57,252 bases of DNA. Origin: a virus. Lineage: Duplodnaviria > Caudoviricetes. Under the pieces are notes generated by a model. That model was not told the origin of the DNA. It ran no database searches and saw only the letters and a program-made list of their open reading frames with translations. Shown here in pieces: positions 12,017-57,252 of this stretch. The first letter of the stretch is position 1, and each line of letters opens with the position of its first letter. The DNA lies in IMG/VR virus record IMGVR_UViG_3300017987_000106, positions 1 to 57,252 of that record; one strand, 5' to 3'. Made by a program: the position numbers and the translations under genes.

Positions 12017-12745
12017 GTGGCCTTCTCTGAGAGAGCCCAGCAAGACATCCAGCTATGGAAGGAGTGGAAACAGCAGCCTGGGCCGCAGACCGTCGGGCCG
12101 CTCCTTACCAAACTCGAGCCCGTGATCAACAATGCGATCTCGGGATCTCTGCGTGGTGGTGTGGCCGGCGGGCAAGCTAGAGTCCCGAAGGTCGTCGTCA
12201 AGGGCATGGCGACGAACATGGCCCTTCACCACCTCTGGAACAACTACGACGGGCGCAGCTCTCAGATCAACACCTACCTCACGAACTACCTCCGCCTCAA
12301 GCTGGCCCCCGAGGTCAACAAGTACCAGAACATCGTCCGGATCCCTCATGGCAAGTCTGACCACATAGGCAAGATCAAGGAGGCTGACATCGAGCTCCAG
12401 GAGGAGCAAGGCCGCGACTACGTCAGCGACGCAGATATTGCCGATAGGGTTGGTCTTCCTGTGCACCACGTCGAGTCCATCCGCAAGCAGACAGCTCAGA
12501 AGGACTATCTGGCATCGAAGGCCGAGGCCGAAGCTGCGGTAGAGCAGACCCCGTTCCAGCGGGCAATGCGGCAGACCTACATCGAGCTCCCACAGCAGGA
12601 CAGGGCAGTTTTCGATCTGTGGCTGAAGCAGAGCAAGCCTGCGAAAGACATCTCCAACATGTTGAACATGAGCCGGCGGCAGCTGTTGGATTCTCAAAGA
12701 CGGATCGGCGAGAATCTCCGCGACAACCATGCGTACATGGGGTGA
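12017..12745 (+). CDS. RNA polymerase sigma factor, sigma70 family (group 3-like: regions 2, 3, 4)
   Basis: Region 2 (LLTKLEPVIN...NNYDGRSSQINTYLTNYLR), VRIP motif, region 3 (LQEEQGRDYVSDADIADRVGL), region 4 HTH (LPQQDRAVF...AKDISNMLNMSRRQL). Confidence 0.8.
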   Translation: MAFSERAQQDIQLWKEWKQQPGPQTVGPLLTKLEPVINNAISGSLRGGVAGGQARVPKVVVKGMATNMALHHLWNNYDGRSSQINTYLTNYLRLKLAPEVNKYQNIVRIPHGKSDHIGKIKEADIELQEEQGRDYVSDADIADRVGLPVHHVESIRKQTAQKDYLASKAEAEAAVEQTPFQRAMRQTYIELPQQDRAVFDLWLKQSKPAKDISNMLNMSRRQLLDSQRRIGENLRDNHAYMG

Positions 12746-38718: not shown

Positions 38719-38724
38719 GGTCTC

Positions 38725-40677: not shown

Positions 40678-40690
40678 ATCCTATCCTGGT

Positions 40691-40720: not shown

Positions 40721-40737
40721 GGTTGGTGTGGTGACGG

Positions 40738-41841: not shown

Positions 41842-41852
41842 CTGGTTTTCTC

Positions 41853-42830
41853 CTAGTTTTCTCTGAGGGTCCAATCGAGGTATGTGGATGACCCCCTAAC
41901 GACCCTTCTGACTTGGTTGAGGTCTTCGACCTCGGAAATGTCCTTCACATCTTCCGTGAAGGCGATTCTGGGCATGGTGAACCGGGATAGGCGTTTGCAG
42001 AGCTTGGGTGCCTGCTCCCGCCCGGCCTTGTCATCGTCCAGCATGACGACCAGCGTGCAGCCAGTGCGAAAGACGAGGGTGTTCAAGACGCGTATCTGTT
42101 TTCGACTGAACATGGCTCCGGTCAGGGATACCCCTGTGATCCCGGCCATCTCTAGCCGCATGACTTCCTTGAACCCCTCACATACTGGAACGAGCTCCCC
42201 TCTACGGGCCGACAGGACGGCTCGGTGGACGTTGTAGACCAGGTTGGCCCGTTGAGGTCGATACCCAACAGGCGCCAGGTCATACAGATCCTCCTCGCCG
42301 TAGAACTTGTACTTCGGCCAGGCATTCCCGTAGACGGTTCTCCCGGAGACCGCGACCAGCTTTGACCACATATCCCTGATTGGGTACGTGATCCTCTCCT
42401 GTCCGTGATCCCAGCCTATTTCAAATTTGAACAACGCCTCCTCGGGCCATCCGTCATCGAGCATGTCGATGGGACACCCGTAGAACACGTCCAGCACCTC
42501 CTCTGGCAGGACAACTCCTGCCTCCCTATGTCGTTGCTCCAGTACATGCTGGCGAAGGCGTGAGGGCCTCTCAGGGCGTCCTAGCCCCTTCGTCAGCTGC
42601 TTGACTTGCTCCTTGCTGTACCCCAAGCGGTAGAGGAGGGTATCGACCCACCCTCCACCACACCCTGCCAGACAGTTCCAGTCGCCCGTGTCCAAATTCA
42701 CCCCGAAGCTGGGGCGGTTGTCGTCGTGAAAGGGGCACCGCGCTTTGATTTGGCGATGTCCCCTCTCTCCGGCGTAGGGCTTGCTGACCCTCTCCAGGTG
42801 GGAGAGGGCGGTCTCGACTGCGAGATTCAT
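41853..42830 (-). CDS. dnaG: DNA primase (CHC2 zinc finger + TOPRIM)
   Basis: CPFHDDNRPSF...CLAGC; VCEGFKE; MLDDDKAG. Confidence 0.9.
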   Translation of the reverse strand: MNLAVETALSHLERVSKPYAGERGHRQIKARCPFHDDNRPSFGVNLDTGDWNCLAGCGGGWVDTLLYRLGYSKEQVKQLTKGLGRPERPSRLRQHVLEQRHREAGVVLPEEVLDVFYGCPIDMLDDGWPEEALFKFEIGWDHGQERITYPIRDMWSKLVAVSGRTVYGNAWPKYKFYGEEDLYDLAPVGYRPQRANLVYNVHRAVLSARRGELVPVCEGFKEVMRLEMAGITGVSLTGAMFSRKQIRVLNTLVFRTGCTLVVMLDDDKAGREQAPKLCKRLSRFTMPRIAFTEDVKDISEVEDLNQVRRVVRGSSTYLDWTLREN

Positions 42831-44116
42831 TTCCTCCCCCTGAGTTTCTGTTGCTTGGGACTTCTTCTACGAACTTTCTCCTCCTTCGACTCGTCTTTCT
42901 TGAGAGAGCGGTGCCCAGGCGGTACCTCGTGGATCCTCTCGCAGAAGTCCGCGAAGCAGGCCCAGTCTTCCGCCTCTAGCTCTCTTGCAGCGGCAACTTT
43001 GAAATGGCGTATGCCGGTCTCCTTGTTCAAAGAAACCCACAAGACGATGTCAGCGATCTGTTCGATCTGGATACTCTCTGCGATGTCGCCGTCCTTGTTC
43101 GACTGCGTTGAGACCATGACCGGCAGGTCCTTGACTCGGCTTATCTTCTTCAACCTCTTCGAGACGTCACCCAACTTGTGCCGGAGCTCCCTATTCGGGT
43201 CACCCATGGTGATGTACTGCATCTGGTCGACCAGGAGGATGTCCGGCTTGTGCTCATCGACGAGTCCTTCGATTCTGTCGATGCGCAGTTCGCCCTCTTC
43301 GTCTTCCGGGTCGTAGATGATGAAGTTCGACTGGTCTAGGAAAGAAGCAATCACCCGCCGAAGGTGCATCATGTTCTCAGCAGCCTTGGCGTCCCCCATC
43401 TTGAAGAGGTCTTTCGTCCTCATCGGAGAATAGGGGAAGCCGGCCCTGATGGCGTAGACGCGGCGAGCGATTTGGCTCTTGGGCATCTCCGGTGTGATGA
43501 AGAGGACTTTGTACCCTTCTCTGGAGACGAACTCGGCTTGCTCGAGCAAGGCCCAGGTCTTGGCGTTCTTCTTCTTGCCGTAGAGTACGATGAACTCGCC
43601 TGAGCGAGCTCCACCAGAACACTTCTGCATGGTGGGCCAGACGTAGGGGACTACGCGATCGACCTCTTGTTCGGAGGTCAATGCCCTGAAGTCGATGTCG
43701 GCCCGACTTCCCAAGACATAGGTCGGCGTTCTGCCGAAGCTCGAGGAGATATCCATGTACTTCTTCTGGAGCTCCTCGGCAGCCCCGAGAGGGCCGTGTC
43801 TCTCCAGAAGGTCCTGCGACTCGATTTGGAGCCGCCTGAACTTCGCTTCGGCGAGCTCTTCTGCCACAGCCGAACAGAGTATCTCTGGGTCCTCCTCGTC
43901 CGTCTCCTCGAAGTAGATCCCCGGGAGCTTCTCCCGGATGGTCTTCTTGCGCGGGACGGACCCGTGCTCATTGAAGTAGAGCGAGACGAACTCCAAGAGG
44001 ATTGAGGCGTCTTCGTCGGTTAGTTCGTCGTGGGTGATCCCCCACATGCGTAGAGGTCGCAAGTCACCGGTCTCTATTACCCTCGTCACGAGGGCCATCT
44101 GAAACCTCGAGCTCAT
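42827..44116 (-). CDS. dnaB: DnaB-like replicative helicase
   Basis: Walker A-like GKKKNAKT; FITPEM; LLVDQMQ; STQSNK; IEQIAD. GGAGG SD. Confidence 0.8.
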   Translation of the reverse strand: MSSRFQMALVTRVIETGDLRPLRMWGITHDELTDEDASILLEFVSLYFNEHGSVPRKKTIREKLPGIYFEETDEEDPEILCSAVAEELAEAKFRRLQIESQDLLERHGPLGAAEELQKKYMDISSSFGRTPTYVLGSRADIDFRALTSEQEVDRVVPYVWPTMQKCSGGARSGEFIVLYGKKKNAKTWALLEQAEFVSREGYKVLFITPEMPKSQIARRVYAIRAGFPYSPMRTKDLFKMGDAKAAENMMHLRRVIASFLDQSNFIIYDPEDEEGELRIDRIEGLVDEHKPDILLVDQMQYITMGDPNRELRHKLGDVSKRLKKISRVKDLPVMVSTQSNKDGDIAESIQIEQIADIVLWVSLNKETGIRHFKVAAARELEAEDWACFADFCERIHEVPPGHRSLKKDESKEEKVRRRSPKQQKLRGRK

Positions 44117-44141
44117 TGCTTACCTCCGTCTTGGGACGCAC

Positions 44142-44170
44142 AGATTACTACGCGGAAAGGCCCTGGTCAA
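44142..44170 (-). promoter_or_regulatory. Sigma70-type promoter upstream of helicase-primase-SSB-polA
   Basis: TTGACC-17 nt-TAATCT in one of the few intergenic gaps. Confidence 0.5.
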
Positions 44171-44445
44171 TCGAGGCTGACACCTCCAATGTCCTTACCT
44201 CTGTAGGGCTTTCCGGTATCGAAGGCCGCCTCGACGTCGTCAGCAATAGCGTCGACGAGAGCCTGTGCTCGGCGCATGACGCGCTCGCTGGTTGCGACGC
44301 CCTCTACGAAGGCGGTGGGTGTACCCTGGCCGGAGATCCCGGCCTTGTACTGGACCTTCAGTACTGCTGTCCCCTGACGGGGGAGCGACTCTTGTACCTG
44401 CACGTCTAGCGCGCAGACTCTATCGATGGCGCATTTCCTGATCAT
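44167..44445 (-). CDS. Hypothetical protein (92 aa)
   Basis: ATGA coupling. Confidence 0.55.
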   Translation of the reverse strand: MIRKCAIDRVCALDVQVQESLPRQGTAVLKVQYKAGISGQGTPTAFVEGVATSERVMRRAQALVDAIADDVEAAFDTGKPYRGKDIGGVSLD

Positions 44446-44825
44446 TCGCCATCACCGATCTGGAGGACGATCTTCCCATCGAGTTGGTAGGCCTCGGGGA
44501 TCCAAGACCCGTCGACCATCTCGACGAAAGGCACCAACCCGTCGGCGATGTGCTCCGCCATCGTTTGGTGGGCCTCCCCGTTGAAGAGGTCCTCCTCAGT
44601 GACGTCACACTCGCCACCCATGTCGATCTTGAAGCTGTAGTTCCCGTAGTCGACGGACCTCCCGAAGGAGAGCCTAACTGACGCGCGGGCGGTTCTGTTC
44701 TTCTTTCGGATCAGCCTTTCGGCCGAGTCGATTCCTGGCATGGCTACCTCCAAATCTCGTTCCTTCCCCGAGATGTTGTTCTTGATCGTCATCTTCCCGG
44801 AGAAGGCGTTCTTCCTCTCGCTCAT
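44442..44825 (-). CDS. Hypothetical protein (127 aa)
   Basis: GGAGG SD; ATGA coupling. Confidence 0.65.
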   Translation of the reverse strand: MSERKNAFSGKMTIKNNISGKERDLEVAMPGIDSAERLIRKKNRTARASVRLSFGRSVDYGNYSFKIDMGGECDVTEEDLFNGEAHQTMAEHIADGLVPFVEMVDGSWIPEAYQLDGKIVLQIGDGE

Positions 44826-45373
44826 GACTCCTCCGATTTCTTGAACGCCGCGCGCCTGGTCTTATTGGTTTCTACGAAACCCCCGGCGCGCGTAGCAGTA
44901 TCGACTTTTATGAACCCTTGTGCAACAGCCGCGTCCCAGATTTTCGGGTCCACTTTCTCCTCGGTGATGATGAGCGGCTGCCCTCCGATTTCAATGTCTC
45001 CGTACCCCAGGTCACGCAGGACACTGATGTTGAAAGCCTTGTTCTTGCCCCCGGAGTGGCTTTTGAACGTCCACCCTTCGATGGTTTGGGGCCGTGAGAA
45101 TTTCCTGGAGATCCTCTTGGCTTTCGCCATCAGATGTTGGATCTCGTTCATCCTCTCGTCGATCTGGTCTTGGAAGCTCGGCTTTGCCGGCATGTTCTCG
45201 GCAAGTTCTCGAACTTTGTCTAGCAGCTCCGGGGCTTCTAGCATTGCATGGTAGAGCTCTTCGGCCTCCGTCTGCTTGGCTCTGATCTCGTCAACTACAG
45301 CCGTCATGTCGTTCAGCTGTGTAGCGAGCTCGTAGGCGTCTCTCAATGCGCCGCTCTTCTTGATTCTCGGCAT
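44822..45373 (-). CDS. Hypothetical coiled-coil protein (183 aa)
   Basis: AGGAGGAG SD. Confidence 0.65.
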   Translation of the reverse strand: MPRIKKSGALRDAYELATQLNDMTAVVDEIRAKQTEAEELYHAMLEAPELLDKVRELAENMPAKPSFQDQIDERMNEIQHLMAKAKRISRKFSRPQTIEGWTFKSHSGGKNKAFNISVLRDLGYGDIEIGGQPLIITEEKVDPKIWDAAVAQGFIKVDTATRAGGFVETNKTRRAAFKKSEES

Positions 45374-45382
45374 CTACTCCTC

Positions 45383-46144
45383 CTAGTTCAGGTATACGGC
45401 CAACTCCTCCACAATCTCCGGAACTCTCTTCCGTCCTTCGTAGGCCGCAAGTACGTATTGGGTAATCCCCTCGGCAATCGCCAGGTCTCTCACGAGCTGC
45501 TCATACGGATCGTCGCTGAAGAAGACCTTGGGGAAGTTGTCGATGGGGGGCAGGGTGTTGTCTGGCAACCGGCTGTCGATACGACGAAGCACACCGGCCG
45601 GGTGCCAGGTCACTAGCATGGGGTATGTCAAGTCTCCCTTGACCTCGCTAGGGACTTTGATGTTGACGACTTCACCGCGGTAGGCCTTGAGCGTGCAGGA
45701 TGGCCCGCCGAGTGTCTTTGCAGCAACGGCACCGAGAGCTACCACCAGAAGCGGGTTCAGGTGGTAGATCTCCTTGTGCAGGCGCTCCCTACACGCGCTG
45801 ACTTCTCCGCCCATCGGCTGCCGGTTGTACTTGGGGTTCTCCAAGTCGGGCGGGCGGCAGAGGACTGCGTTGGTGTAGTAGTGGCGATCCTTGTCGATGT
45901 CGAGCATCCAGAGGACGTCGAATAGGGTCGTTCCAGTCTTGCCGACGAAGACCTCTCCCTTCTTCTCCTCTTGGACGCCGGGAGCTTCCCCGACAAACAC
46001 GATCGGGGGGTTGTCGATGTTTCCTTTCCCGAAGATCGGACGACCAAGTCGGGTCTCGTTGAGGGGACAGCGGGTACAATTCCCCCACTCCGCTCCCAGG
46101 TAGCTTTCGACTTCCGAGGGCGGTAGGTGTTCAAGTTCCGTCAA
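45383..46144 (-). CDS. udg: Uracil-DNA glycosylase family 4 (4Fe-4S)
   Basis: CTRCPL; FVGEAPG..E; FVG..G; TNAVLCRPP..NRQP..C; TWHPA. Confidence 0.9.
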   Translation of the reverse strand: MTELEHLPPSEVESYLGAEWGNCTRCPLNETRLGRPIFGKGNIDNPPIVFVGEAPGVQEEKKGEVFVGKTGTTLFDVLWMLDIDKDRHYYTNAVLCRPPDLENPKYNRQPMGGEVSACRERLHKEIYHLNPLLVVALGAVAAKTLGGPSCTLKAYRGEVVNIKVPSEVKGDLTYPMLVTWHPAGVLRRIDSRLPDNTLPPIDNFPKVFFSDDPYEQLVRDLAIAEGITQYVLAAYEGRKRVPEIVEELAVYLN

Positions 46145-47480
46145 TGCTCTTTCTCCTGTAGCCGTATCGGTACACGTTCCCGCGGAACTTCCCGAATGTT
46201 CGGTGTAGCATGGGCACGTCTACTGGGTCGTAGGCGTAGACGTGCGGCGGCTGTTTGGTTGGGTGGTTTCTGAGGATCCTTCCGACTCCTTGGACGAAGC
46301 GCCTCTTGCCGGCCCAGGGCAAGCAGATGTGCAGCGTGTCCAGCTCGGGCCTGTCGAGTCCCTCTGTTGCCAGCTGGGTGGTCGCACACACGATGTCACT
46401 ATCGTGTAGAGCTCCTGCCCGGTCATCTGCGTCCGTGTCCCCGACTAACAAGGAGGACCCTTTCAGGTTGCTGTGAAGAAAGCGCAGCTGCTCCTTGCGG
46501 TCGCTCAAGAGGAGCTGCTTTCTGCCCTGCCCAGCGCATTGCTGAACCTGAGCCAGGATGGAGTCGTTGATCTTGCTTGTACCAACTTCGTTCAAAGTCC
46601 ACGCACGCTCAGCCCCATCGTCATCAAGGGACGCCCCTACCTTGATCCTGGCGATTTGCTGCTGCGTCAGGCGCGCTTTGGTCTTGACGAAGAAGACCTC
46701 GGGCTCGAGGTCGGTTTCGTCGTTGCGGTAGACGACAGGCCCGATGTGGTTCAAAAAGACCGACTCCAGCCCAGCACAGTCCGGTGTTGCGCTGAGCCCA
46801 ACACGCCTACCCCTGCAGATCGCCAACCCGTTGCGGAATTGGAACCCCTGCATGTGGTGTACTTCGTCGTAGATGACTAGCCCGAACTCCGAGAAGAGGG
46901 GGACGCACTTGTCCGGAGTCCTGGATAGAGATTGTATCAGGGATACAACGAGGTCTTTCTCCTCGTACTTCCACTTCTTGGCCTTTCCTCCTATCAGGCC
47001 TATGCGGTCCTTGGGCAGACCAAGCACTGTCTGTGCTCGGTCTACCCATTGCTGCTGTAGGTCTTTCGTGTGTACGACGATCAGCGTCGGGACGGCCAGG
47101 GTCTGTGCCAGCTGTAGCCCGATAGCGGTCTTCCCTGTGCCAGGCGGCAGTTGGATCACCCCGTTCTCTTCCAGTAGCACATCCACAGCCTGGATTTGTG
47201 CTCGCCGAGCCCTCTCGTTTGGGGCGTTGTCCGCGGAGACGACATTGGCTGCCGACCCGAATGCTTTTCGGAACGCGGGCTCGATCCTCAAGACAGGGAC
47301 CTGCAAGAGATTGAGCTGGGAGTCCGAGAAGACTTCCCTCGGACACATCCAGTACTTGCCGACGTCGTACACCTCTTGCACTTCGCGCCCGTCAGCGTAG
47401 GCGTACGAGCATTTGCTCGTCAGCGCCCGCCAATTGAGTTCCCCTTTGGGCACGAGTGCCCAGGTCCCCTTTACTACCAT
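46131..47480 (-). CDS. SF2 DEAD/DEAH helicase (UvsW/XPB-like)
   Basis: LPPGTGKT; YDEVHH; GLSATP; EGLD; QGVGRILR. Probable start ATG 47480. Confidence 0.9.
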   Translation of the reverse strand: MVVKGTWALVPKGELNWRALTSKCSYAYADGREVQEVYDVGKYWMCPREVFSDSQLNLLQVPVLRIEPAFRKAFGSAANVVSADNAPNERARRAQIQAVDVLLEENGVIQLPPGTGKTAIGLQLAQTLAVPTLIVVHTKDLQQQWVDRAQTVLGLPKDRIGLIGGKAKKWKYEEKDLVVSLIQSLSRTPDKCVPLFSEFGLVIYDEVHHMQGFQFRNGLAICRGRRVGLSATPDCAGLESVFLNHIGPVVYRNDETDLEPEVFFVKTKARLTQQQIARIKVGASLDDDGAERAWTLNEVGTSKINDSILAQVQQCAGQGRKQLLLSDRKEQLRFLHSNLKGSSLLVGDTDADDRAGALHDSDIVCATTQLATEGLDRPELDTLHICLPWAGKRRFVQGVGRILRNHPTKQPPHVYAYDPVDVPMLHRTFGKFRGNVYRYGYRRKSIDGT

Positions 47481-47833
47481 TTGAACACCATCATTTTCTG
47501 AAAGGCTGCTCGGATGCCGATCAGAATACCATGCGAGACGACCAGAGTCGCGCCCATAGCGGCTGCTTTTCCGGTCACTTTGATCATCATCCCCATGGCG
47601 TCTTCCCACTTCACCGGGACGTCTTCTTCGTTGTCGATGTCCTGGAAGATGGACTCGAGAACGTCTCCCATCGATGAGGAGAAGATGTCTTTCCCCTTGC
47701 CTACGCTCCGTACGTCGATCCCAGTATCGTCGTCATCGTCGTAGTCGGCGTTCGGGGACCTTGTGATTCTCACTCTTCGCCCATTTTCGCGTCCCAGCCA
47801 AGTCCTCGGTCGCGGAATTCTACTTGCTGACAT
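47474..47833 (-). CDS. Hypothetical protein with hydrophobic C-terminal helix (119 aa), first gene of the operon
   Basis: AAGGAGG SD; AAAMGATLVVSHGILIGI. Confidence 0.6.
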   Translation of the reverse strand: MSASRIPRPRTWLGRENGRRVRITRSPNADYDDDDDTGIDVRSVGKGKDIFSSSMGDVLESIFQDIDNEEDVPVKWEDAMGMMIKVTGKAAAMGATLVVSHGILIGIRAAFQKMMVFKW

Positions 47834-47904
47834 TCATGTCCTCCTTGCGCTATGTTCCTGTCATCCGGTGCCCTGACTTATACGGAGAACTGAAAGGCAC
47901 GACG

Positions 47905-47933
47905 TTGACGGTCTTGCCTGCTCCGAGTAAGCT
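47905..47933 (+). promoter_or_regulatory. Sigma70-type promoter driving the head/portal/RNAP operon
   Basis: TTGACG-17 nt-TAAGCT in the divergent intergenic region. Confidence 0.55.
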
Positions 47934-47960
47934 GGCGGTAGGATTTTGCGAGGAGTTATC

Positions 47961-49022
47961 ATGTTCCGAGTAGACCATTACGACGACCCGTCGATCTTGG
48001 GCCGGCTACCAGCCACACTGAGAACCGACCTCACCAAAGTGGCCGCAGACCTCACGGATCAGCTGGACGGGCTGTCCGATTCTGAGTTTGCCCTTGTCCT
48101 CTATGCACCAGGAGACCCTCCTGCCAAGCACAGAAAGTTCGCCTGCGTCGATGAGGGCAACGTCGCCCTGTCCACCGTTGCCCTGCTCCGGAACCAGACA
48201 CTGCTCCCGCAGGAGGCGGTGAAGGTTGCGGCTGAGAACCTTCTTCGATGCACTCAGGACTTCGGCATGTACTGCCCGCCCGAGCTCGAGAAGCTGGCCG
48301 GGACCAAGGAGCCTTCTCCCGAGACGAACCTCGTCATGCTCGACCCGGGTGCGCCTCCACCTCTCCCGCAGGTGAAGACGGCATCTGCCCCTGAGGACGT
48401 CGGCGTCAAGGTGGCCATGGCCTATTTCTACGACAATGAGGCTTTCCTCACAGGGTGGGAGAAGCGTGCTCTTGCCAAGCACATCGTGAAGCAGGCTGAG
48501 GCCGAGGAAGTTCACGTCCCGTCGCCATTCGAGAAGTACGCATCGGATACCTACGCCCCGGACTTGTTCGAGGCGATCTTGATGCGGCAGGCGATGTGCG
48601 TCGCTGCCGATGAGAGCGACGGCGCTTTCGAGAAGGCGGCGATGGACACGAGTGCTTACGGGCGCCTGTTCCAGAGCAAGGACAGTCTCGACCCTGGGGC
48701 TTTTGCGCAGAACCTCGACGAGCTCGACAGAGCGACAGGTCTGTTCGACTCCGTTCCGGACGCCGTCTACTCGACGTTTGGTAAAGTAGCCCAAGAGCCG
48801 GAGGTCCTCTTCAATGATGGCATCAACTCCATCACGAAGGGGCAGCTCGAGTGGCTGACGACCAACCGCCAGAAGATCATCGAGGAGCAGTTTGGGAACC
48901 ACCTCGCTGAAGAGATGAGGAAGAACCCCGAGGCCATCTTCAACTCCCTACCACGGCCGCAGAAGGTCATCATCAGCCGGCTGGCGAACCAGATCACAGC
49001 AGAGCACGGCGTCCAGGTCTGA
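47961..49022 (+). CDS. K-x-A-motif-rich protein, putative head morphogenesis/internal protein (353 aa)
   Basis: AGGAG SD before ATG 47961; about ten KxA motifs; upstream of the portal. Confidence 0.6.
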   Translation: MFRVDHYDDPSILGRLPATLRTDLTKVAADLTDQLDGLSDSEFALVLYAPGDPPAKHRKFACVDEGNVALSTVALLRNQTLLPQEAVKVAAENLLRCTQDFGMYCPPELEKLAGTKEPSPETNLVMLDPGAPPPLPQVKTASAPEDVGVKVAMAYFYDNEAFLTGWEKRALAKHIVKQAEAEEVHVPSPFEKYASDTYAPDLFEAILMRQAMCVAADESDGAFEKAAMDTSAYGRLFQSKDSLDPGAFAQNLDELDRATGLFDSVPDAVYSTFGKVAQEPEVLFNDGINSITKGQLEWLTTNRQKIIEEQFGNHLAEEMRKNPEAIFNSLPRPQKVIISRLANQITAEHGVQV

Positions 49023-49035
49023 GGAGCATGAACTT

Positions 49036-49824
49036 GTGGCGGTCAAAACCTTTCATATCTTCAACGTCAAGGGACAGTTAGAGGACCTCTCTTCCCTCTA
49101 CACAGATAAGCCTGTAGGTACGCCTCAGGACTTCGAGATCGAGGCCGACCCGGACGAAGACCTTGTCGACAGCTCTGATATCGAGGTAGAGGCGGAAGCG
49201 GATCTCGCAGACCTCGAGTCGATGACGGTCTGGTACATCCTCCGAGATCAACTTGGAGAGGACTGGTGGGTCCACGAGGCCCAGGCTACTGTAGACGTCT
49301 TGGAGGGCTCGTTCCCGATCTCTCAGGGTGCACGAGACCTGATACAGTCCCTGCGTCTGCTGGAGTCCGGGAATGCTTTCTGGAAAGAATGGGAGGTGTT
49401 CAACTGGGTTTGCCAGGGCATCAACGGTGACGGGGTCGATTTCACGGGGTTTCCTATCCCGACTGTGGAGCAGATGGCCGAGGCTATGCTCCTTGCGTCT
49501 TTCGTAGAGAAAGCTCGGGGGGAGCAGGAGAACTACAGTGAAGAGGTCCTCTCGTACATCGCAACTACTTGCCTCGAGCATGGAATGTGGGTATTGCCCT
49601 TCCCCTTAGTGATCGCAGGGGACCGGATTCGGGAACTGCTGAAGCGAAGGGACCTCTCCGTCCCGCTCGACAGAGAAGCTTCCATCAGGAAGGGGTCTGA
49701 TCCTCTGACTAGCCAAGAGGCCGTTCAGGGGGTTCGCTATCGGGCACTGTGGGACGAGGTCCAGGGTATCGTCAAGGAGTCCGTCAGGGAGCTGTCGACT
49801 TACAAGAGGGTGAGTAGCACATGA
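49036..49824 (+). CDS. Hypothetical protein (262 aa)
   Basis: GAGGAG SD; ATGA coupling with the portal. Confidence 0.65.
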   Translation: MAVKTFHIFNVKGQLEDLSSLYTDKPVGTPQDFEIEADPDEDLVDSSDIEVEAEADLADLESMTVWYILRDQLGEDWWVHEAQATVDVLEGSFPISQGARDLIQSLRLLESGNAFWKEWEVFNWVCQGINGDGVDFTGFPIPTVEQMAEAMLLASFVEKARGEQENYSEEVLSYIATTCLEHGMWVLPFPLVIAGDRIRELLKRRDLSVPLDREASIRKGSDPLTSQEAVQGVRYRALWDEVQGIVKESVRELSTYKRVSST

Positions 49825-51806
49825 GTGGTGACGGATTCACGGTAGGCGGTCTGGGGGCGGCTAGCCACCTCCAGAAGTACAACCGCGTCGGGGTCAGGTA
49901 TCCGAGTCCTTTCTTCGACCTATCGCAGGTGTACTTGCCGAAGAACATGCGGGCGCTGTTCCGCTGGGCAAAGTACTACGCGCTGACCTATGGCCCGGTC
50001 TACGCCTACGTGACCAAGATGGCCTCCTACTCTCTCACAGAACTCGTGTGGGGGAGCGACGCAGACTCCAGCATGTCCTCGAGCTTCGACGAGGACAAGT
50101 GGAAGAAACGCTGGTCCTCATTGATGCTCGAGGACATGCTGATGTACGAGAAGTGCTACCAGTTCGGGTTGCACTACTACACCTTTGGGAACGCCTACGT
50201 CAGCATCCACTATCCATTTGACCGGTGGCTCATCTGCCCGAAGTGTGGCTTCAGGAAGCGCGCTAGAGAGTTCAGGAAGAAAGAGTACCGGTGGGTCGAC
50301 TTTCGCTTCCACGGAGAATGCAGGAAGTGCGGGACCAACGGTCCTTTCAAGGTCAAGGATCAGTTGGTGAGGACCTCCCGTGGTCTTCGCATCAAGATCT
50401 GGAATCCTGAGCGCGTCCTCACGTTCCACAACGACGCTACCGATGAGACCGAGTACAAGTACCAACCCTCCGAGCAGCTCATGCGCCGAGTCCGGCGAGG
50501 TGACAGGAGGGTCATCGAGAGGACCCCGTGGGCATTCATCGCTGCGACGAAGAAGCGGGGCCTCGTCACGTTTGACAAGAGGAACTTCGTCCACGTCAAG
50601 GCCCCAAGCCCAGATGGTGAATCTCAGGGCCTCGGACACCCGCCTATCCTCGCAGCTCTGAAGGACATCTTCCACGTCCAACTCATGAAGCGCGCCCAAG
50701 AGGCCAACGCTATCGAGCGCACGATTCCACTCACGATGATCCATCCTCTCCCGATGGGCGGCGGTGAGGGGTGGAACCCTATGATGTTCACCAACCTGAC
50801 CGACCTCCTCCAGAAGACTCAGGAGGAGGTGTCTCGGGCCAGGATGGACCCCAACTACATCCCCTTCTCCCCTGTCCCTATGGGGGTAACTCCGATTTGG
50901 GGCGATGGGCGGAACCTACTGCTCGTCCCGGAAATTCGTGGCTGGACAGAGATGATTGTTGCCGACTTGGCTGTCCCGACAGAGTTCATCTTCGGTGGCC
51001 TCCAGTGGTCTGGCAGTAACGTCTCACTCCGGATGTTGGAGAACCAAATCTTGAGCTTCACATCGGGCTACAAGCGCCTGACGAAGTTCGTCGTCGAGTC
51101 CGTAGCCCGCTTCTTGAAGTGGCCGATCATCCCGTATGCGTGGACCCCATTCAAGATGGCCGACGACATCCAGCTGAAGCAGCACGCGCTGATGCTTTCG
51201 CAGATGAACAAGATTGGAGACTCTACATTGCTCGGTTACTTCGGGAAGAACCCGTCCGACGAGCACGACGACATCAAGCAGTCCCTCAAGCGCCAGTCCG
51301 AATACATGTCTATCCAGATGGTCGAGCAGGCCAGGGCCCAGGCAGAAGCAGCAGAGGTCCAACAAAAGGCCCAGATGTCGATGCAGCAAGAGATGGGCAT
51401 GCAGCAACCTGGGATGGAAGGGCAGCCCGGGGCTGAGCAAGGGATGCCACCGACTGGGGAAGAGGACCCGCAGCAGTTTGCGATGAGGATGGCCGAGCAG
51501 CTGGCCCCACAGCCCGATGAGGTCATCGAGCAGACGCTGACCGAGGTTGCCCAGCAATCCCCCGAGCTCGCGCAGCAGATTGCCTCGATGGTTGAGCAGA
51601 TTCGAGCTCAAGGAGGAGGCCAAGAGGAGCAGCCTCAGGAGCAGGGGGCTCCGCAGGAAGAGCAGATGCAGCCAGGTATGATGCAGCCTGGAATGCAGCC
51701 AGGAGGACCCGGGTTCGGACCTGGTACAGCTCCCGGTGCTCAGATGATGCAGCCACAACCACAGCAACTTCCGCCGCGCCGTGGTCCGGGAAGTGCGGCC
51801 ATCTAG
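49821..51806 (+). CDS. Putative portal protein with zinc-ribbon insertion and Q/M/P/G-rich tail
   Basis: FGLHYYTFGNAYVS; IKIWNPERV; GLGHPPILAAL; IVADLAVPTEFIFGG fit the portal fold pattern. Confidence 0.7.
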   Translation: MSGDGFTVGGLGAASHLQKYNRVGVRYPSPFFDLSQVYLPKNMRALFRWAKYYALTYGPVYAYVTKMASYSLTELVWGSDADSSMSSSFDEDKWKKRWSSLMLEDMLMYEKCYQFGLHYYTFGNAYVSIHYPFDRWLICPKCGFRKRAREFRKKEYRWVDFRFHGECRKCGTNGPFKVKDQLVRTSRGLRIKIWNPERVLTFHNDATDETEYKYQPSEQLMRRVRRGDRRVIERTPWAFIAATKKRGLVTFDKRNFVHVKAPSPDGESQGLGHPPILAALKDIFHVQLMKRAQEANAIERTIPLTMIHPLPMGGGEGWNPMMFTNLTDLLQKTQEEVSRARMDPNYIPFSPVPMGVTPIWGDGRNLLLVPEIRGWTEMIVADLAVPTEFIFGGLQWSGSNVSLRMLENQILSFTSGYKRLTKFVVESVARFLKWPIIPYAWTPFKMADDIQLKQHALMLSQMNKIGDSTLLGYFGKNPSDEHDDIKQSLKRQSEYMSIQMVEQARAQAEAAEVQQKAQMSMQQEMGMQQPGMEGQPGAEQGMPPTGEEDPQQFAMRMAEQLAPQPDEVIEQTLTEVAQQSPELAQQIASMVEQIRAQGGGQEEQPQEQGAPQEEQMQPGMMQPGMQPGGPGFGPGTAPGAQMMQPQPQQLPPRRGPGSAAI

Positions 51807-51814
51807 GATGACTC

Positions 51815-54800
51815 ATGGCGCAAGAGATCTACGACTACGACGAGATCAAGGACTCGGTCGGCGAAGCCATCCAGGAGATTTTCCCTGTTGCTGGCAGGAA
51901 CCTGACCGTTGAACTCAACAGCGTCGACATTGTCGACAACAAAGCTGAAGACGACATCTCGGGACAATACGCCCAGCTCACCAAAGGTAAGACGTGGTCC
52001 ATTCCCGTCTACGCCAATGTCACCTTGCGGGACTCCAAAGGGGAGATTGACAAAGCGCGGGTGAAGGTCTTGGACCTGCCCAAGATGACGGATCGTAAGA
52101 CCTTCATCGTCTCTGGGAAAGAGCGACAAGTACACAGCGTCCTTCGCCGGAAGTCGGGCGTTTTCTCTCGGAGGAACGAGGCGGGTGAGCTCGTGTCCGA
52201 GTTCAATCTCGACAACGGGTTGCACGAGGGCGGCAAGGTCGACCGCGGGAGGAAGTTCCAAGTCAGGTTCGACGACCAGAGCGGGAAGTTCCTCGTTCAA
52301 ATCGGGACCAGGAAGACCATCAACGCCTACGACCTATTGGGGGCCTTGGGGTACAATACCGAGGCGCTATCAGGGAGGTTCGGGGACGATATCCACAAGG
52401 CCAACCTATCGGCCCGCTCTAAGAAGCGTAGCATCGATAGCGCCTTTGCGGCCATCTACCCGAAGGTGACGAAGAGCCTGTCCACTGACGAGAAGGCCAA
52501 GCGCATCAAAGAGAGTTTCGGCCGCACTTCCATCGACCCCTCTACGACCGAGGTGACTCTCGGGAAGCGTATCGACACCATCGATGGGGACACACTCGTC
52601 TCGTCGATGAATCGCCTGCTCAAGATTTCCAGAGGGGAAGCTGAAGAAGACGACAGGGAGTCTTTGCTCTTCAAGCACACGGCAGCGCCTCCGAAGCTGA
52701 TCGCCGAGAGCATCTCACACCCAAGGAACATCGAGCGCATCCGTGCGAAGATACGTGGTCGCCTCAACAATCCAAAGAAGAAGCCCGAAACGGCTAGCAA
52801 GGCCCTCCCACTTCGGATCTTGGACAAGCCGGTCCACACTATGCTGACCGACTCAGATGAGTCTGACATCGTAGACCATGCCAACCCCGTCGGCACGATG
52901 TCTGGGCACAACCGAGTCAGCATGTTGGGCCTGGGGGCCATCAAGAACTTGGAGCAAGTTCCATCCGATGCTCCTCTGGTAAGCCCGTCACATTTCGGCT
53001 TCATCGATCCTCTCCACACGCCGGAGAGTCGAAAAGCAGGGGTCTCTCTCCACCTCCCTGTCGGTGTCCGCGCCACCAGGGACGGGAAGCTCGAGACCGA
53101 GATGTTGCGGACGGACGGTAGCAAAGTGCGCGTCTCAGCCGAGGAGGCCGCGAAGGCGACTGTCGCGTTCCCAGACGAGTTCAACATCCGCGAGCGAGCG
53201 GGCCGGACGAGTGTAAAAGCTGCGAAGGGCAAAGTGCTGGCGCAGAGGAACGGCAAGATAGAGTCTGTCGACCCGCAAACGGTGGACTTCATCCTCCCCA
53301 AGCCACAGCAGGCTTTCGACACGGCCACGAACCTGGTCCCTTTCCTCCAGTCCAATCAGGGGAATCGGGCTATGATGGCCGGGAAGCATGTAACCCAGGC
53401 CCTGCCGCTGAAGAACCGAGAGCAGCCGCTAGTCCAGACGGGGATGGAAGAGGAGATGTCTCAGCACGCCGGGGCGCGCAAGTCTCCGGTAGCTGGCAAG
53501 GTCACGGCCGTCAATGAAGTCGACGGGGCCTACGAGGTCCGCATCAAGCCCAAGAAGGGCAAGGCCGTTGTCGTCAAGGCTTACAAGGACTTTCCAACAT
53601 CTGGCGGCGTAGTGCTCGACTCCGACGTCAAAGTGAAGGTCGGGGACCAGGTGAAAGAGGGAGACCTCGTCGCAGACAGTTCGTTCACGAAAGACGGCGT
53701 CCTAGCGATGGGCACGACCCTCAAGGCTGCCTACATGCCATGGAAGGGGTACGCGTTCGAGGATGGCGTTGTCATCAGCGACCAGGCAGCGGAAAAGCTG
53801 ACGAGTGTGCATCTCCACGAGCGTACGAAGAAAGACAAGGAGATGATCCAGGACAAGAGCAAGTTCTTGGATTGGTTCGGTACACGCTTCAAGAGCAATG
53901 ATGAGCAGCGGGCTCTCGACAAGAGCGGAGTTATCAAGAAGGGGCAGAAGATAGAGCCTGGGCAGATTCTCCTCGCAGGCCTCAAGGAGGTAGATCCTCG
54001 ATCACCGGAGGCCATCCAGAGGAAGCGGGCCCGGTTGTCCCCGTATGACCCAGTGACGATGACTTGGGACAAGGACGTCCCTGGGGTTGTGACCGACGTC
54101 AAGAAGACTCCCGACGGGTCGGTGCGGGTCTTCGTCAAGACCGAAGAGAAGATGAAGGAGGGTGATAAGCTCGTCGGACGGAATGCGAACAAGGGCATCG
54201 TCGTCAAGATCCTCCCAACGGGGGAGATGCCGCACACCAAAGACGGGAAGCCCGTCGACATCATCATGTCTCCGCTCGGGATCCCTGGCAGGATCAACCT
54301 CGGGCAGGTCCTTGAGGTCGCAACAGGGAAGGTCGCAGAAAAGACTGGAAAGCCGATTAGGGTCGCTCCGTTTGGTCGTCAGAGCTACATTGATGAAGCC
54401 AAGGAGAGGCTCAAGAAGGCTGGTCTCAGTGATACAGAAGAGCTCGTGGACCCGACAAGGTCTAACAGGTCTTTCGGGGATGTCCTCGTCGGCCCGCAGT
54501 ACACGATGAAGCTCGAGCACCAGGTCTCGAAGAAGTCTCGGTCGCGGGCAACGGGCAAGTACGACAGGTGGGACACTCCTCTTGGCGGAGATGGGGGAGC
54601 TCAGTCTCTGGGGGAGCTCGGGACGTATGGACTTCTTGCCCATGGGGCTGTCGAGAACCTGCGAGACATGCAGCTCCTCAAGAGCCAACGCAACGACGGC
54701 TTGTGGGATGCGCTCCTCAATGGGAAGCCGATCCCGGTACCGAACCACATCACCCAGAACGACCGTTTTGAGGGCCTGTTGCGCGTCGCCGGCGTGAAGA

Positions 54801-57252
54801 TGAACAAGGGAGACACGGTCAGCCTCCTGCCCCAGACCGACGAGGACACGGTTCGTATGGCGATGGGGCGCAAAGGCCTCAAAGATGCTGGCCTCATGCT
54901 CGCGAACAAGCGAGACAGGGTAGTGGCAGAGCCAGAGGGCCTGTTTGACGCCATCAAGACCGGCGGTGAGAATGGTACGCGGTGGTCGTACTTCGAACTC
55001 CCTGAGCCGATCCCGAACCCGATGTTCATGCCCGCAATCACGGCCATGACAGGGTGGTCTGAGGGGAAGGTCAAGGCCATCACCGAAGGTAGTGACAGCT
55101 ACGAGGGCCTGACGGGGGGAGAGGCAGTCAAGAAGAAGCTGCAGGAGGTAGACCTGGCAGCTCTGCGCAAGTCTCTGCTCGCGGATGCCGACAATATCAA
55201 AGGCCGCAAGCTGAAGGCCGAGACGAAGGCGAAAGAGCTCAGTACGATCTACAAGAAGCTCAAGTACGTCGAGAACCTCGAGAAGAACGAGAAGCGCCCA
55301 GAGGACGTCTACGTCTTACAGAAAGTCCCAGTGATGCCGCCCAAGCTTCGCCCGGTGACCTCTATTGGTTCTGGAGAGAGGGTAGCTGAGGACATCAACC
55401 ACCTCTACCGCGACCTTGCCCTCGTCTCCAATACGATGAAGGAGTCGAAGGAGAAGTGGGGCCTCCCAGACGACCAACTGAAGCCTCTTCGCCGCGCTAC
55501 CTTGGACGGCATGTCGGCCTTGGTGCAGGCCAAGAGTGCTGACAAGCCCCTGAGCGGGGCATACCGAGGTGTCATCGGTACGGTTGTCGGCAAGAAGCCG
55601 AAGGAGACCGGGTATGGTGAGGCCGGGGAGTCCAAACGCGGTCTCTTCCAGAACGACATCACCCGCCGGCGTCAGGACTTCAGCGGGCGGTCTACGATCA
55701 CCGTCGAGCCGCGGTTGAAGATCGACGAGGTCGGCCTCCCCTTCGGGATGGCCTACACAATGCTCGAGCCCTGGGCCATCAAGAAGCTGAAGGACAGGTA
55801 CGGGTACAGCTCGCGAGACGCGCGCAAGTACTATGAGGAGAAGGGAGAGGAAGACACACGAGTTCGTGAGGTGCTCGTCGAAGTTGCAAAAGAGCGCCCT
55901 GTGCTCCTCAAGCGTGACCCTACCCTCCACAAGTTCAACGTCATGTCCTTCCAACCGCAGCTGGTGGAAGGGAAAGCCATCCAGATTCACCCGCTGGTGA
56001 CAGGGGGGTTCAACGCTGACTTCGACGGGGACACGATGAGCGTCTACGTGCCCGTCAGCGACAAGGCCGTGGAAGAGGCCGGCAGTCTCCTTCCTTCCAA
56101 GAACCTGTTCAGCCCGGCGAACGGAAAGATCGTCCACAAGCTCGGCCACGAGATGGTCTGGGGTCTGAGTGGGATCACCGAAGTTGGGAAGACGACGGGC
56201 AAGAAGTTCTCTTCGACGAAAGCGGCAGAGTCTGCTCTCAGGAAGGGGGAGATCGTTCCTACTGACGTCATTAAGATCGGGCCAAGAGAGACCACGATGG
56301 GGTGGGAAGAGGTCAATCGGGCCATCCCAGCGAGATTTCGGTTCAAGGGAGATCTCAAGAAGAGGCCGCGGCTGACAGGCGGAAAGATCAACGACCTTTT
56401 GACCTCTGTGGCCAAGAAGGACCCGGAGGCGTATGCCGAAGCGGCGAATACTCTGAAGGACATCGGTAACCGGCATTCTACCGATTCCGGCATGAGTGTG
56501 TCCTTGGATGACTTTGCAGTCATCGACAAGGACTACCGAGATGCAGTCTTCTCGGAGGCCGAAGAGCGCGTTGCTGCTGGGGAAGACCCGGTAAAGGCCT
56601 ACGGCTCAACCATCAAGAAGCTCGATAATCACAACCGGAGTCTGCTCCGTTCTGGGCAGGTCAAGAACAGCCTGTTCGAAGTTGTTGATTCCGGAGCTCG
56701 CGCGTCATGGGGACAGTTGAAGCAGATTGTATCCTCGCCGGCGATGGTGTTCGACGCTCAGAATAGGGTTGTTCCCAGACTCATCAAGAACTCCTACAGC
56801 GAGGGTCTCAACCTCGCTGACTACTGGACAAGTACCCACGGGGCTAGAAAAGGGGCCATCAACAAGTCCATCTCGACGTCCAAGCCGGGCTATTTGAGCA
56901 AGCAGATCATGCGGACTTCGATAGACCAGGTCATCCAGTCCGACGACTGCGGGACTCGCGAGGGCATCAACATGGCTACCAACGATCCTGACATCCAGGG
57001 CCGACACCTCGCGCACGGCATACGGATCAAGGGCAAGAAGAGGAACCGAAGCATCAAAAGGGGTACTCTAGTCACGCCCTCGGTCACGAACACCTTGAAA
57101 TCGTCAGGCGTTGGGAGCGTTCTCGTTCGTACGCCGATGCGCTGCGAGCACGAGAATGGGGTTTGCGCAAAGTGTATGGGCCTCGATGAGGAGGGGAAGA
57201 ACCCATCCATCGGCGATAATGTTGGCGTTCTGGCCGCGCAAAGCATTGGGCA
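51815..57252 (+). CDS. rpoBC: DNA-directed RNA polymerase beta-beta' fusion (3'-truncated, at least 1812 aa)
   Basis: One frame from ATG 51815. Beta motifs: LPKMTDRKTFIVSGKER, HFGFIDPLHTPES, LVPFLQSNQGNRAMM, YMPWKGYAFED (53732), GDKLVGRNANKG (54161), PLGIPGRINLGQ, KLEH. Beta' motifs: VPVMPPKLRP, RQDFSGRS, NADFDGD (56012), bridge helix GARKG..STSKPGYL, CEHENGVCAKC, AAQSIG (57233). Confidence 0.95.
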   Translation, partial: MAQEIYDYDEIKDSVGEAIQEIFPVAGRNLTVELNSVDIVDNKAEDDISGQYAQLTKGKTWSIPVYANVTLRDSKGEIDKARVKVLDLPKMTDRKTFIVSGKERQVHSVLRRKSGVFSRRNEAGELVSEFNLDNGLHEGGKVDRGRKFQVRFDDQSGKFLVQIGTRKTINAYDLLGALGYNTEALSGRFGDDIHKANLSARSKKRSIDSAFAAIYPKVTKSLSTDEKAKRIKESFGRTSIDPSTTEVTLGKRIDTIDGDTLVSSMNRLLKISRGEAEEDDRESLLFKHTAAPPKLIAESISHPRNIERIRAKIRGRLNNPKKKPETASKALPLRILDKPVHTMLTDSDESDIVDHANPVGTMSGHNRVSMLGLGAIKNLEQVPSDAPLVSPSHFGFIDPLHTPESRKAGVSLHLPVGVRATRDGKLETEMLRTDGSKVRVSAEEAAKATVAFPDEFNIRERAGRTSVKAAKGKVLAQRNGKIESVDPQTVDFILPKPQQAFDTATNLVPFLQSNQGNRAMMAGKHVTQALPLKNREQPLVQTGMEEEMSQHAGARKSPVAGKVTAVNEVDGAYEVRIKPKKGKAVVVKAYKDFPTSGGVVLDSDVKVKVGDQVKEGDLVADSSFTKDGVLAMGTTLKAAYMPWKGYAFEDGVVISDQAAEKLTSVHLHERTKKDKEMIQDKSKFLDWFGTRFKSNDEQRALDKSGVIKKGQKIEPGQILLAGLKEVDPRSPEAIQRKRARLSPYDPVTMTWDKDVPGVVTDVKKTPDGSVRVFVKTEEKMKEGDKLVGRNANKGIVVKILPTGEMPHTKDGKPVDIIMSPLGIPGRINLGQVLEVATGKVAEKTGKPIRVAPFGRQSYIDEAKERLKKAGLSDTEELVDPTRSNRSFGDVLVGPQYTMKLEHQVSKKSRSRATGKYDRWDTPLGGDGGAQSLGELGTYGLLAHGAVENLRDMQLLKSQRNDGLWDALLNGKPIPVPNHITQNDRFEGLLRVAGVKMNKGDTVSLLPQTDEDTVRMAMGRKGLKDAGLMLANKRDRVVAEPEGLFDAIKTGGENGTRWSYFELPEPIPNPMFMPAITAMTGWSEGKVKAITEGSDSYEGLTGGEAVKKKLQEVDLAALRKSLLADADNIKGRKLKAETKAKELSTIYKKLKYVENLEKNEKRPEDVYVLQKVPVMPPKLRPVTSIGSGERVAEDINHLYRDLALVSNTMKESKEKWGLPDDQLKPLRRATLDGMSALVQAKSADKPLSGAYRGVIGTVVGKKPKETGYGEAGESKRGLFQNDITRRRQDFSGRSTITVEPRLKIDEVGLPFGMAYTMLEPWAIKKLKDRYGYSSRDARKYYEEKGEEDTRVREVLVEVAKERPVLLKRDPTLHKFNVMSFQPQLVEGKAIQIHPLVTGGFNADFDGDTMSVYVPVSDKAVEEAGSLLPSKNLFSPANGKIVHKLGHEMVWGLSGITEVGKTTGKKFSSTKAAESALRKGEIVPTDVIKIGPRETTMGWEEVNRAIPARFRFKGDLKKRPRLTGGKINDLLTSVAKKDPEAYAEAANTLKDIGNRHSTDSGMSVSLDDFAVIDKDYRDAVFSEAEERVAAGEDPVKAYGSTIKKLDNHNRSLLRSGQVKNSLFEVVDSGARASWGQLKQIVSSPAMVFDAQNRVVPRLIKNSYSEGLNLADYWTSTHGARKGAINKSISTSKPGYLSKQIMRTSIDQVIQSDDCGTREGINMATNDPDIQGRHLAHGIRIKGKKRNRSIKRGTLVTPSVTNTLKSSGVGSVLVRTPMRCEHENGVCAKCMGLDEEGKNPSIGDNVGVLAAQSIG

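Follow-up and report, generated by a model that had tools for sequence, protein, structure and literature searches.

The stretch of DNA analysed here, referred to as the window, is an entire viral record of IMG/VR (IMGVR_UViG_3300017987_000106; Duplodnaviria, Caudoviricetes) of 57,252 nucleotides, linear and with a CheckV completeness of 31%. Its 3' end is occupied by a plus-strand gene for a fused beta-beta' RNA polymerase (RNAP) at 51815..57252, comprising codons 1-1812 of 2077 and cut where the trigger loop begins. The original prediction, made from the letters of the window, had described this gene as encoding a bacterial-like, streamlined, single-chain phage enzyme. Our analysis confirms that it joins a complete compact bacterial-type beta subunit to a complete compact beta' subunit in one chain.

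The fused gene and its junction

From the ATG at 51815 to the final base of the window runs one open frame of 1812 codons, open at its 3' end. An AGGA ribosome-binding site (51805..51808, plus strand), read directly from the sequence, lies 6 nucleotides before this ATG and overlaps the TAG stop codon (51804-51806) of the preceding portal gene. The complete protein (P0002), of 2077 amino acids, is present in a public protein collection, where it is carried by two contigs, the largest of 150,516 bases. It is 100% identical across the window's 1812 residues, and its extra 265 residues complete the Rpb1_5 domain.

Pfam beta domains come first in the window protein (Rpb2_3, residues 352-414; Rpb2_6, 617-917), followed by the beta' domains Rpb1_1 (1118-1214), Rpb1_2 (1285-1425), Rpb1_3 (1430-1566), and Rpb1_5 (1664-1812). 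The complete protein exceeds five curated cut-offs of Pfam Rpb1/Rpb2 models (score/cut-off: PF00562, 187.8/23.4; PF04998, 114/28.5; PF00623, 103.2/25.3; PF04997, 39.9/39.7; PF04565, 26/21), and PF04983 scores 22.2, under its cut-off of 28.9. The beta part (residues 1 to ~1002; 51815..54820, plus strand) is collinear with a minimal bacterial beta and contains FED (residues 648-650; nucleotides 53756-53764), the two-lysine motif GDKLVGRNANKG (residues 783-794; nucleotides 54161-54196), and KLEH (residues 899-902; nucleotides 54509-54520). The beta' part, from about residue 1003 (54821..57252, plus strand), contains the clamp helices (residues ~1181-1228), the catalytic NADFDGD (residues 1400-1406; nucleotides 56012-56032), a second zinc cluster beginning at DCGT (nucleotides 56945-56956), and AAQSIG (nucleotides 57233-57250), the last motif of the window protein. 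In the complete protein, AAQSIG continues with QPSTQLSLNVFHTGG, which we take to be the trigger loop. Domain order and motif positions agree with the predicted single frame of beta motifs followed by beta' motifs up to the trigger loop, and NADFDGD, the two beta lysines, FED, and KLEH were all located intact, as had been proposed. Residues D1402-D1406, K785, K793, and C1712/C1777/C1784/C1787 are invariant among 45 fused relatives.

Phmmer searches of the PDB aligned beta residues 58-977 with residues 75-1035 of a 1100-amino-acid cyanobacterial beta (E 2e-84) and beta' residues 1097-2037 with residues 190-1151 of a bacterial beta' (E 2e-110). Archaeal enzymes (1e-22) and the jumbo-phage AR9 enzyme (5e-19) matched more weakly, in line with the bacterial-like character ascribed to the protein, and identity to the bacterial subunits is only ~30%. 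Both halves are short, with ~1000 amino acids for beta, against a predicted ~995, and ~1070 for beta'. The N-terminal zinc ribbon of beta' is deleted: in the alignment, the window protein has 0 cysteines in this segment versus 4-5 in the four bacterial beta' rows shown, and a short TGG..G..W loop takes its place. No cysteine was present at the zinc-ribbon position in 22 of 25 fused rows. The description of the enzyme as streamlined thus holds for the size of both halves and for this deletion. The best-matching PHROG families, phrog_24349 and phrog_25354 (E ~1e-92 to 1e-95), are annotated as 'unknown function' though they clearly represent RNAP beta and beta'.

The fusion junction (54794..54832, plus strand) is predicted to be a beta-hairpin without a linker, in which strands 994-998 and 1002-1006 flank G999. 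The junction peptide LLRVAGVKMNKGDTVSLLP (residues 988-1006; nucleotides 54776-54832) is free of stop codons. The original prediction had also excluded a Shine-Dalgarno sequence at this place; a purine-rich GGGAG is present at 54808-54812, but no ATG, GTG, or TTG follows it at start-codon spacing. An AlphaFold2 model of residues 560-1470, built from a 52-sequence alignment, reached a mean predicted local distance difference test score (pLDDT) of 87.5 and a predicted template modelling score of 0.78, with pLDDT values of 87-94 around the join. In Foldseek searches, the halves of the model matched bacterial beta and cyanobacterial beta' N-terminal-half chains at E ~1e-30, with a query-normalised TM-score of ~0.42 for each half. 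Bacterial beta' starts to align, with its N-terminal strand, at about residue 998-1002 of the fused chain. In the 45 fused relatives, G999 and P1006 are invariant, invariant residues flank both sides of the join, and the junction region (reference positions 985-1045) is 57-68 residues long.

Metagenome contigs from four runs belonging to three studies (sediment, seawater) were aligned to 51700-57252; no RNA data set was among the runs listed for this region. They cover the junction with 0 inserted or deleted letters and contain neither a stop nor a frameshift there. Two of the runs are not flagged as possible sources, and in each of these a single contig, spanning 51738-54951 and 51700-54951, respectively, shows 0 differences and bridges the junction by more than 100 bases per side. 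These data confirm that the fusion is real and not an assembly product.

A continuous frame might still encode a precursor from which, e.g., a phage maturation protease releases individual beta and beta' chains by cutting at or near the junction, and these would then assemble in the usual way. Virion proteins of large phages are often processed, and the apparently unfused and partly fused relatives described below show that separate chains can work. However, the junction is modelled with high confidence as a tight conserved hairpin, it has no linker, and its length is narrowly constrained among the relatives. No cleavage motif was seen, though no search aimed at one was made. We therefore consider a processed precursor very improbable.

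Distribution and evolution of the fused RNAP

A search of 7996 scored candidates returned 366 relatives at E<=1e-3. The best 120 of these all measure 2002-3019 amino acids and possess both Rpb2 and Rpb1 domains, and their contigs reach ~198 kb. A pattern scan of IMG/VR with the window protein alone recovered no further locus. Scanning IMG/VR with a 45-sequence profile yielded at least 693 stretches, 618 of them confirmed as relatives. Of the 70 IMG/VR loci retained, 64 can be read from the beta N-terminus for 2000 codons or more without interruption, five run off the contig end, and one is broken early. A junction-spanning query of 911 residues, compared with 1.84 billion 50%-identity representatives, gave 15,173 matches at E<=1e-3. 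Of the 150 strongest, all with E<=1e-148, 148 have a top-scoring stretch that crosses the junction. Each of five relatives with complete or near-complete genomes (167-202 kb, with terminal repeats in two) was found to have exactly one fused RNAP gene. We show here that the fused gene is a clade-wide trait of a large tailed-phage clade (~165-200 kb) rather than a one-off. The original prediction had missed this large family, whose fused members carry the database label 'RNA polymerase subunit beta'', as well as its cultured relatives and a published group of unfused phage enzymes.

Among 50,697 phage records, Salmonella phage Arash and the Vibrio phages D181, D148, and D69 matched best, with ~30% identity across 82-97% of the query. 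These are cultured myoviruses of ~181-187 kb, in which beta joins beta' at the same junction as in the window protein. As in the window, the portal gene lies just upstream of the Arash-type RNAP gene, and a sigma70-family gene is located in the structural block. In Arash and D69, unlike in the window, beta' is split after the position of window residue 1488, ~80 amino acids past NADFDGD, so that a first gene of 1525 or 1527 amino acids (beta and the N-terminal part of beta') and a second of 606 or 609 amino acids are separated by other genes. The RNAP genes of this type are annotated in their records as 'subunit beta' or 'hypothetical protein', and in the available portion of the Arash paper the product Gp206 is not called a fusion (PMC10585845). 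The RNAP regions of D181 and D148 match in three pieces, with an annotated homing endonuclease beneath the match; that of D69 matches in two. Mobile endonuclease genes may split the RNAP genes of Vibrio phages D181 and D148.

In three beta' trees, the window protein was placed inside a phage-only clade, with the sampled bacterial beta' sequences (10, 10, and 8 rows) on one side of a well-supported branch. The protein is thus not nested within a bacterial phylum. Neither of the two outcomes named in the original prediction as refuting it, an interrupted junction or a place inside a bacterial phylum, was therefore observed. These trees are quick IQ-TREE searches with Shimodaira-Hasegawa-like approximate likelihood ratio test (SH-aLRT) support only; a root towards the bacterial sequences is assumed, and the deepest branching among the phage sequences is weakly defined. 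Arash-type proteins and the window protein fall into the same beta' clade, which comprises 27 rows in one tree and 35 in another. The 27-row clade unites the window protein and every fused form with the Arash-type and the apparently unfused forms. Its earliest branches (L129, P0104) are fused. The Arash-type forms make up one subclade, which includes L122, a protein of 1455 amino acids with beta and the N-terminal part of beta'. The apparently unfused beta' proteins begin at different positions (~1004 in P0144, ~1081 in P0134, and ~1085-1097 in the P0143 group), and these heterogeneous starts rule out that the unfused phage beta' all start at the fusion point. The distribution of forms suggests that the fusion is old in this clade and that the splits are secondary or gene-calling artefacts.

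One sequence labelled as unfused in two of the trees, L102, proved to be a fused gene of ~2024 codons read through in-frame TGA. At 2716-8787 of its record (IMGVR_UViG_3300000172_000001; 102,430 bp, 34% GC), the frame is broken only by five TGA codons and ends at TAA. Two of these TGAs align with tryptophans and one with a tyrosine that are invariant in the 12 relatives compared. This phage probably reads TGA as an amino acid.

Many relatives are lengthened by intein-like insertions. More than 2300 amino acids were found in 27 of the best 120 relatives, which have one to three such insertions of 350-520 amino acids each. The insertion sites are NADFDG|D (10 cases), the beta lysine motif GDK..NKG (5), HTPE| (4), and FH|TGG (4), and more rarely FED (2) and the zinc cluster (2), where the bar marks the point of insertion. 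Most insertions start with Cys or Ser and finish with HN or GN, the next residue being Thr, Ser, or Cys, and the records of many insertion-bearing relatives list Pfam domains of inteins and homing endonucleases. Since these insertions lie in catalytic motifs, they indicate, if indirectly, that the host protein must be spliced to its active form. Some 50%-identity representatives reach 3000-4700 amino acids, and the family looks like a marked intein hot-spot.

A remaining concern was that the gene might be an artefact, i.e., a mis-assembly, a frameshift merging two genes, or a bacterial rpoB-rpoC chimera. Bacterial contigs filed as phage do occur among the phage-collection records matching the query, such as 'Acinetobacter phage MD-2021a' (CAKLQH020000005.1), which carries nusG-rplKAJL-rpoB-rpoC and is bacterial DNA. 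With contigs of four runs agreeing at the junction, hundreds of relatives sharing the fusion, a uniform GC content of 0.56-0.61 along the window, low identity to the bacterial subunits, and a position in the tree apart from the 10 sampled bacterial beta' proteins, such an origin is hardly credible.

Genome context, sigma factor, and missing subunits

The contig is phage DNA and not bacterial contamination. The RNAP gene directly follows a portal protein homologue (49821..51806, plus strand), which BLASTP aligned with Arash gp204, annotated 'portal protein', over ~590 amino acids (E 2e-77, 27% identity). This portal-then-RNAP order is kept in the window, Arash, D69, and the relative G001. The minus strand carries a replication and repair module (33564-47609) extending from a RusA gene (34900-35376) through genes for a RecA/UvsX-like protein (37227-38594), a family A DNA polymerase with a 3'-5' exonuclease domain (38725-40677), a DnaG-type primase (41853-42830), a DnaB-type helicase (42827-44116), and a UDG-family protein (45383-46144) to an SF2 helicase gene (46131-47609). 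AT skew is negative over exactly this module. A baseplate-wedge-like protein is encoded as well. Together with the viral record itself, the polymerase, primase, helicase, baseplate, and portal genes bear out the prediction that the RNAP is phage-encoded. Four large plus-strand open reading frames of 1489, 1027, 962, and 818 amino acids (2021-6490, 7875-10958, 18217-21105, and 28921-31377), presumed to belong to the structural block, gave no Pfam or PHROG match at E<=1e-3, and no transfer RNA genes were found in the window. The genes 3' of the RNAP gene in the closest complete relative showed almost no family matches. The genome of the window phage is roughly 170-200 kb.

A gene for a sigma70-family factor of 242 amino acids (12017..12745, plus strand) lies among the large plus-strand genes, in the same block as the baseplate gene. 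Its product is a homologue of the Arash virion sigma factor Gp10 (E 3.2e-12), the gene for which is likewise situated inside the structural gene block. Sigma homologues were found in all five complete relatives. A profile of six sigma sequences matched SigA, RpoS, and RpoD in the PDB at E ~1e-13 over positions 61-235, corresponding to regions 2 to 4 and, e.g., to residues 135-325 of the 338-amino-acid RpoS. Among the six homologues, Pfam detected Sigma70_r3 in six, Sigma70_r2 in two, and Sigma70_r4 in two, and the window sigma protein alone stays under the Pfam cut-offs. On the complete relatives, Sigma70_r2 gave sub-threshold matches inside the sigma-like reading frames of two of the five.

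A complex model of the sigma protein with RNAP residues 690-1439 attained an interface score (ipSAE) of 0.76, compared with 0.01 for the best of three controls. The mark applied is reached by 116 of 157 solved complexes and by 2 of 215 mismatched pairs. At least 78% of contacts recur between model runs, and the partner pLDDT is at least 76. In the model, sigma residues 55-70 contact RNAP ~1181-1228 (clamp helices/beta' coiled coil) and the sigma C-terminal domain contacts RNAP ~726-745 (beta flap). We thus propose that promoter specificity would be supplied by the phage sigma70-family protein (12017-12745), predicted from the model to engage the clamp helices of beta' and the flap of beta in the way known from bacterial holoenzymes.

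Phage sigma factors acting on the host core are well known, e.g., T4 gp55 and SPO1 gp28. By analogy, the window sigma-like protein could redirect host core RNAP, with the fused enzyme initiating without sigma or with another factor. The complex model cannot distinguish host from phage core and is compatible with this alternative, and the group 2 jumbo phages, which lack an RNAP, are all reported to encode sigma factors (PMC7824862, as far as its available text goes). On the other hand, a sigma homologue accompanies the fused RNAP in all five complete relatives and in Arash, sigma and RNAP are listed together in the Arash virion in the accessible part of that study (PMC10585845), and the modelled contacts are canonical and well separated from the controls, although they may echo solved holoenzymes. 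We regard a host-directed sigma factor as distinctly unlikely and favour a sigma factor that serves the fused enzyme.

No alpha subunit (RNA_pol_A_bac) was detected with Pfam in any of the five complete relatives, while the control search found alpha in 14 of 14 genomes, and no omega (Rpb6/omega domain) scored above the cut-off in any of the five. Since the window represents 31% of the genome, these complete relatives carry the comparison; host alpha might be used.

Two candidate promoter motifs were considered and rejected. The motif GGTAGGAT, shared by two intergenic regions, occurred 4 times versus 1.12 expected, with 5 of 100 shuffles reaching 4, and one of its copies abuts a start codon. 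The variant GTAGGATW occurred 3 times versus 1.45 expected. Within 47000-57252, sigma70-like promoter sites (3 versus 2.6) and terminator-like sites (7 versus 7.8) were at chance level.

Relation to known RNAPs and proposed role

Phage multisubunit RNAPs and bacterial rpoBC fusions are each known, separately. The original prediction had set the window protein apart from the phiKZ, crAss/YonO, and bacterial rpoBC types, and these differences are upheld. In the bacterial rpoBC fusions of Helicobacter and Wolbachia (K13797), the beta C-terminus is joined to the beta' N-terminus, as in the window protein, and one fragmentary relative of the latter is automatically labelled 'COG0086,COG0085 K13797'. 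The rpoBC fusions are cellular enzymes with full-size subunits that work with alpha2 and omega. The window protein, in contrast, is phage-encoded, has only ~2077 amino acids, is devoid of the zinc ribbon, falls outside the 10 bacterial beta' rows, and has complete relatives in which Pfam found neither alpha nor omega.

The phiKZ/AR9-type enzymes have two double-psi beta-barrel domains and no alpha or omega, and of their two sets one is carried inside the virion (available text of PMC7598289 and PMC7824862). They differ from the window type in being divided into four or five polypeptides, in having two sets per genome, and in lacking a sigma factor, according to the accessible part of the source (PMC7824862). 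The window-type enzyme is one chain, present as a single copy and accompanied by sigma in all five complete relatives. The AR9 chain is also far more divergent, as reflected in its E value of 5e-19 versus 2e-84 for bacterial beta, and phiKZ-type PHROG families match the window protein at 1e-34 or weaker. The crAss-like gp66, YonO, and the tape-measure-fused RNAPs of P23-45 resemble the window protein in that both barrels reside in one polypeptide, and some of them are virion-packaged; unlike the window protein, these enzymes are too divergent to be recognised by cellular-RNAP profiles (both after the available portion of PMC7481178).

Related in kind is the mReC group (Weinheimer and Aylward 2020, PMC7481178), described in the accessible text as uncultured tailed phages, many of more than 100 kb, with compact subunits. 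Its beta and beta' are reported there to be detectable with COG0085 and COG0086 models, and they branch apart from the sampled bacterial beta'. The window shares the traits of a tailed-phage contig, of beta and beta' recognisable by cellular-RNAP profiles, and of NADxDGD, but its enzyme is a single protein. The mReC phages have two different genes per phage row, of at most 1563 amino acids each (PMC7481178, Supplementary Dataset 2, as available), and in the data set beta and beta' each appear as a separate protein of 800 amino acids or more, whereas the window gene specifies one protein of 2077. In the available portion of the mReC paper, the word 'fused' is used only for crAssphage (PMC7481178).

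One published mReC contig, L140 (149,482 bp), was sampled in our trees. It has two RNAP sets with beta' proteins of 899 and 1004 amino acids, of which the former keeps the zinc-ribbon cysteines and the latter does not. Both, together with two similar sequences, form a clade (SH-aLRT 100) apart from the 27-row window clade (99). In the record behind this contig (IMGVR_UViG_3300017989_000062), RNAP sequences lie at 74247-76106 and 109509-111113, and the mReC table, in its accessible form, lists 'a' and 'b' RNAP sets for this contig and several others (PMC7481178). No description of bacterial-like fused beta-beta' in phages was found in the literature searched (open-access papers and bioRxiv), nor in the accessible text of the jumbo-phage RNAP reviews (PMC7598289 and PMC7824862). 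The combination seen here, in which one complete bacterial-like chain is associated with a sigma factor and marks out a very large phage clade, thus appears to be new and undescribed in that literature.

Taken together, these observations make it fairly likely, in our estimation, that the gene specifies an active single-chain RNAP that uses its own sigma factor, dispenses with alpha and omega, and may be packaged in the virion as the Arash enzyme appears to be. The intact motifs are those expected of an active DNA-dependent RNAP. With its two halves paired 1:1 by a covalent link, the fused chain would need no alpha-dimer assembly platform and no omega. By analogy with Arash, enzyme and sigma might be produced late, enclosed in the capsid, and introduced together with the DNA, in which case transcription of early phage genes would not depend on host RNAP. 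For a molecule that has to work at one or few copies after ejection, being a single chain would be advantageous.

The available text on Arash virions lists Gp206 (beta and the N-terminal part of beta') with the most spectra of all proteins (3516), Gp216 (the remainder of beta') with 1210, and the sigma factor Gp10 as present (PMC10585845). The location of the RNAP gene directly 3' of the portal gene in the window likewise counts towards virion packaging, as does that of the sigma gene in one block with the baseplate gene. Alternatively, the same molecule might be made after infection and, with the phage sigma factor, transcribe middle or late genes, leaving early genes to host RNAP. The authors of the Arash study allow, in the part available, that abundant infection-stage proteins carry over into the virion preparation (PMC10585845), and the single RNAP per complete genome differs from the two sets of the proven virion-RNAP phages of the phiKZ type (accessible text of PMC7598289 and PMC7824862). 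However, Gp206 tops the virion spectra, above the major capsid protein (3516 versus 1333), which is hard to call contamination (PMC10585845, same portion), and the RNAP gene adjoins the portal gene in the window, Arash, D69, and G001. A purely post-infection role appears unlikely to us, if less so than a host-directed sigma factor.

Several further points weigh, as does the possible carry-over, against a virion-packaged enzyme with its own sigma factor. The virion data were obtained on a relative of only ~30% identity whose RNAP genes are arranged differently, and one RNAP per genome makes the assignment of the enzyme to a temporal gene class ambiguous. Many genes near the RNAP gene have no family recognisable by Pfam or PHROG. 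The pass of the complex model may reflect memory of solved bacterial sigma-core holoenzymes, and the model does not separate phage core from host core. The negative results for alpha and omega were obtained with Pfam models, and a very divergent assembly factor could exist. Finally, motif searches of the window and of intergenic regions found no conserved promoter motif.

It is tempting to go a step further and to speculate that the fused chain is ancestral in a global clade of ~165-200 kb phages, that with one small phage sigma it forms a two-polypeptide holoenzyme without alpha2, omega, or zinc ribbon, which would be packaged in the capsid and leave it with the DNA, and that the partly split and apparently unfused forms arose by secondary fission. 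Covalent fusion would then let a bacterial-type enzyme re-form from a single injected molecule. This extended proposal is tentative and on balance doubtful; if true, the enzyme would be the smallest complete cellular-type RNAP holoenzyme known.

Should the fused chain be active with sigma alone, it would constitute a natural minimal bacterial transcription machine with one gene for the catalytic core, ~25% smaller than Escherichia coli beta plus beta' and independent of alpha-dimer assembly, useful for studies of structure and mechanism and as an orthogonal sigma-programmable polymerase. The inteins in its catalytic motifs are a further resource. Cultured Arash and Vibrio phage D69 permit bench tests of a virion-delivered, sigma-dependent bacterial-type RNAP. 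The window enzyme represents a third architecture of phage multisubunit RNAPs, beside the phiKZ type, which is split several times, and the mReC type, in which beta and beta' are unfused, and with fused, partly split, and unfused forms in one clade, fusion and fission of the RNAP core become open to direct study.

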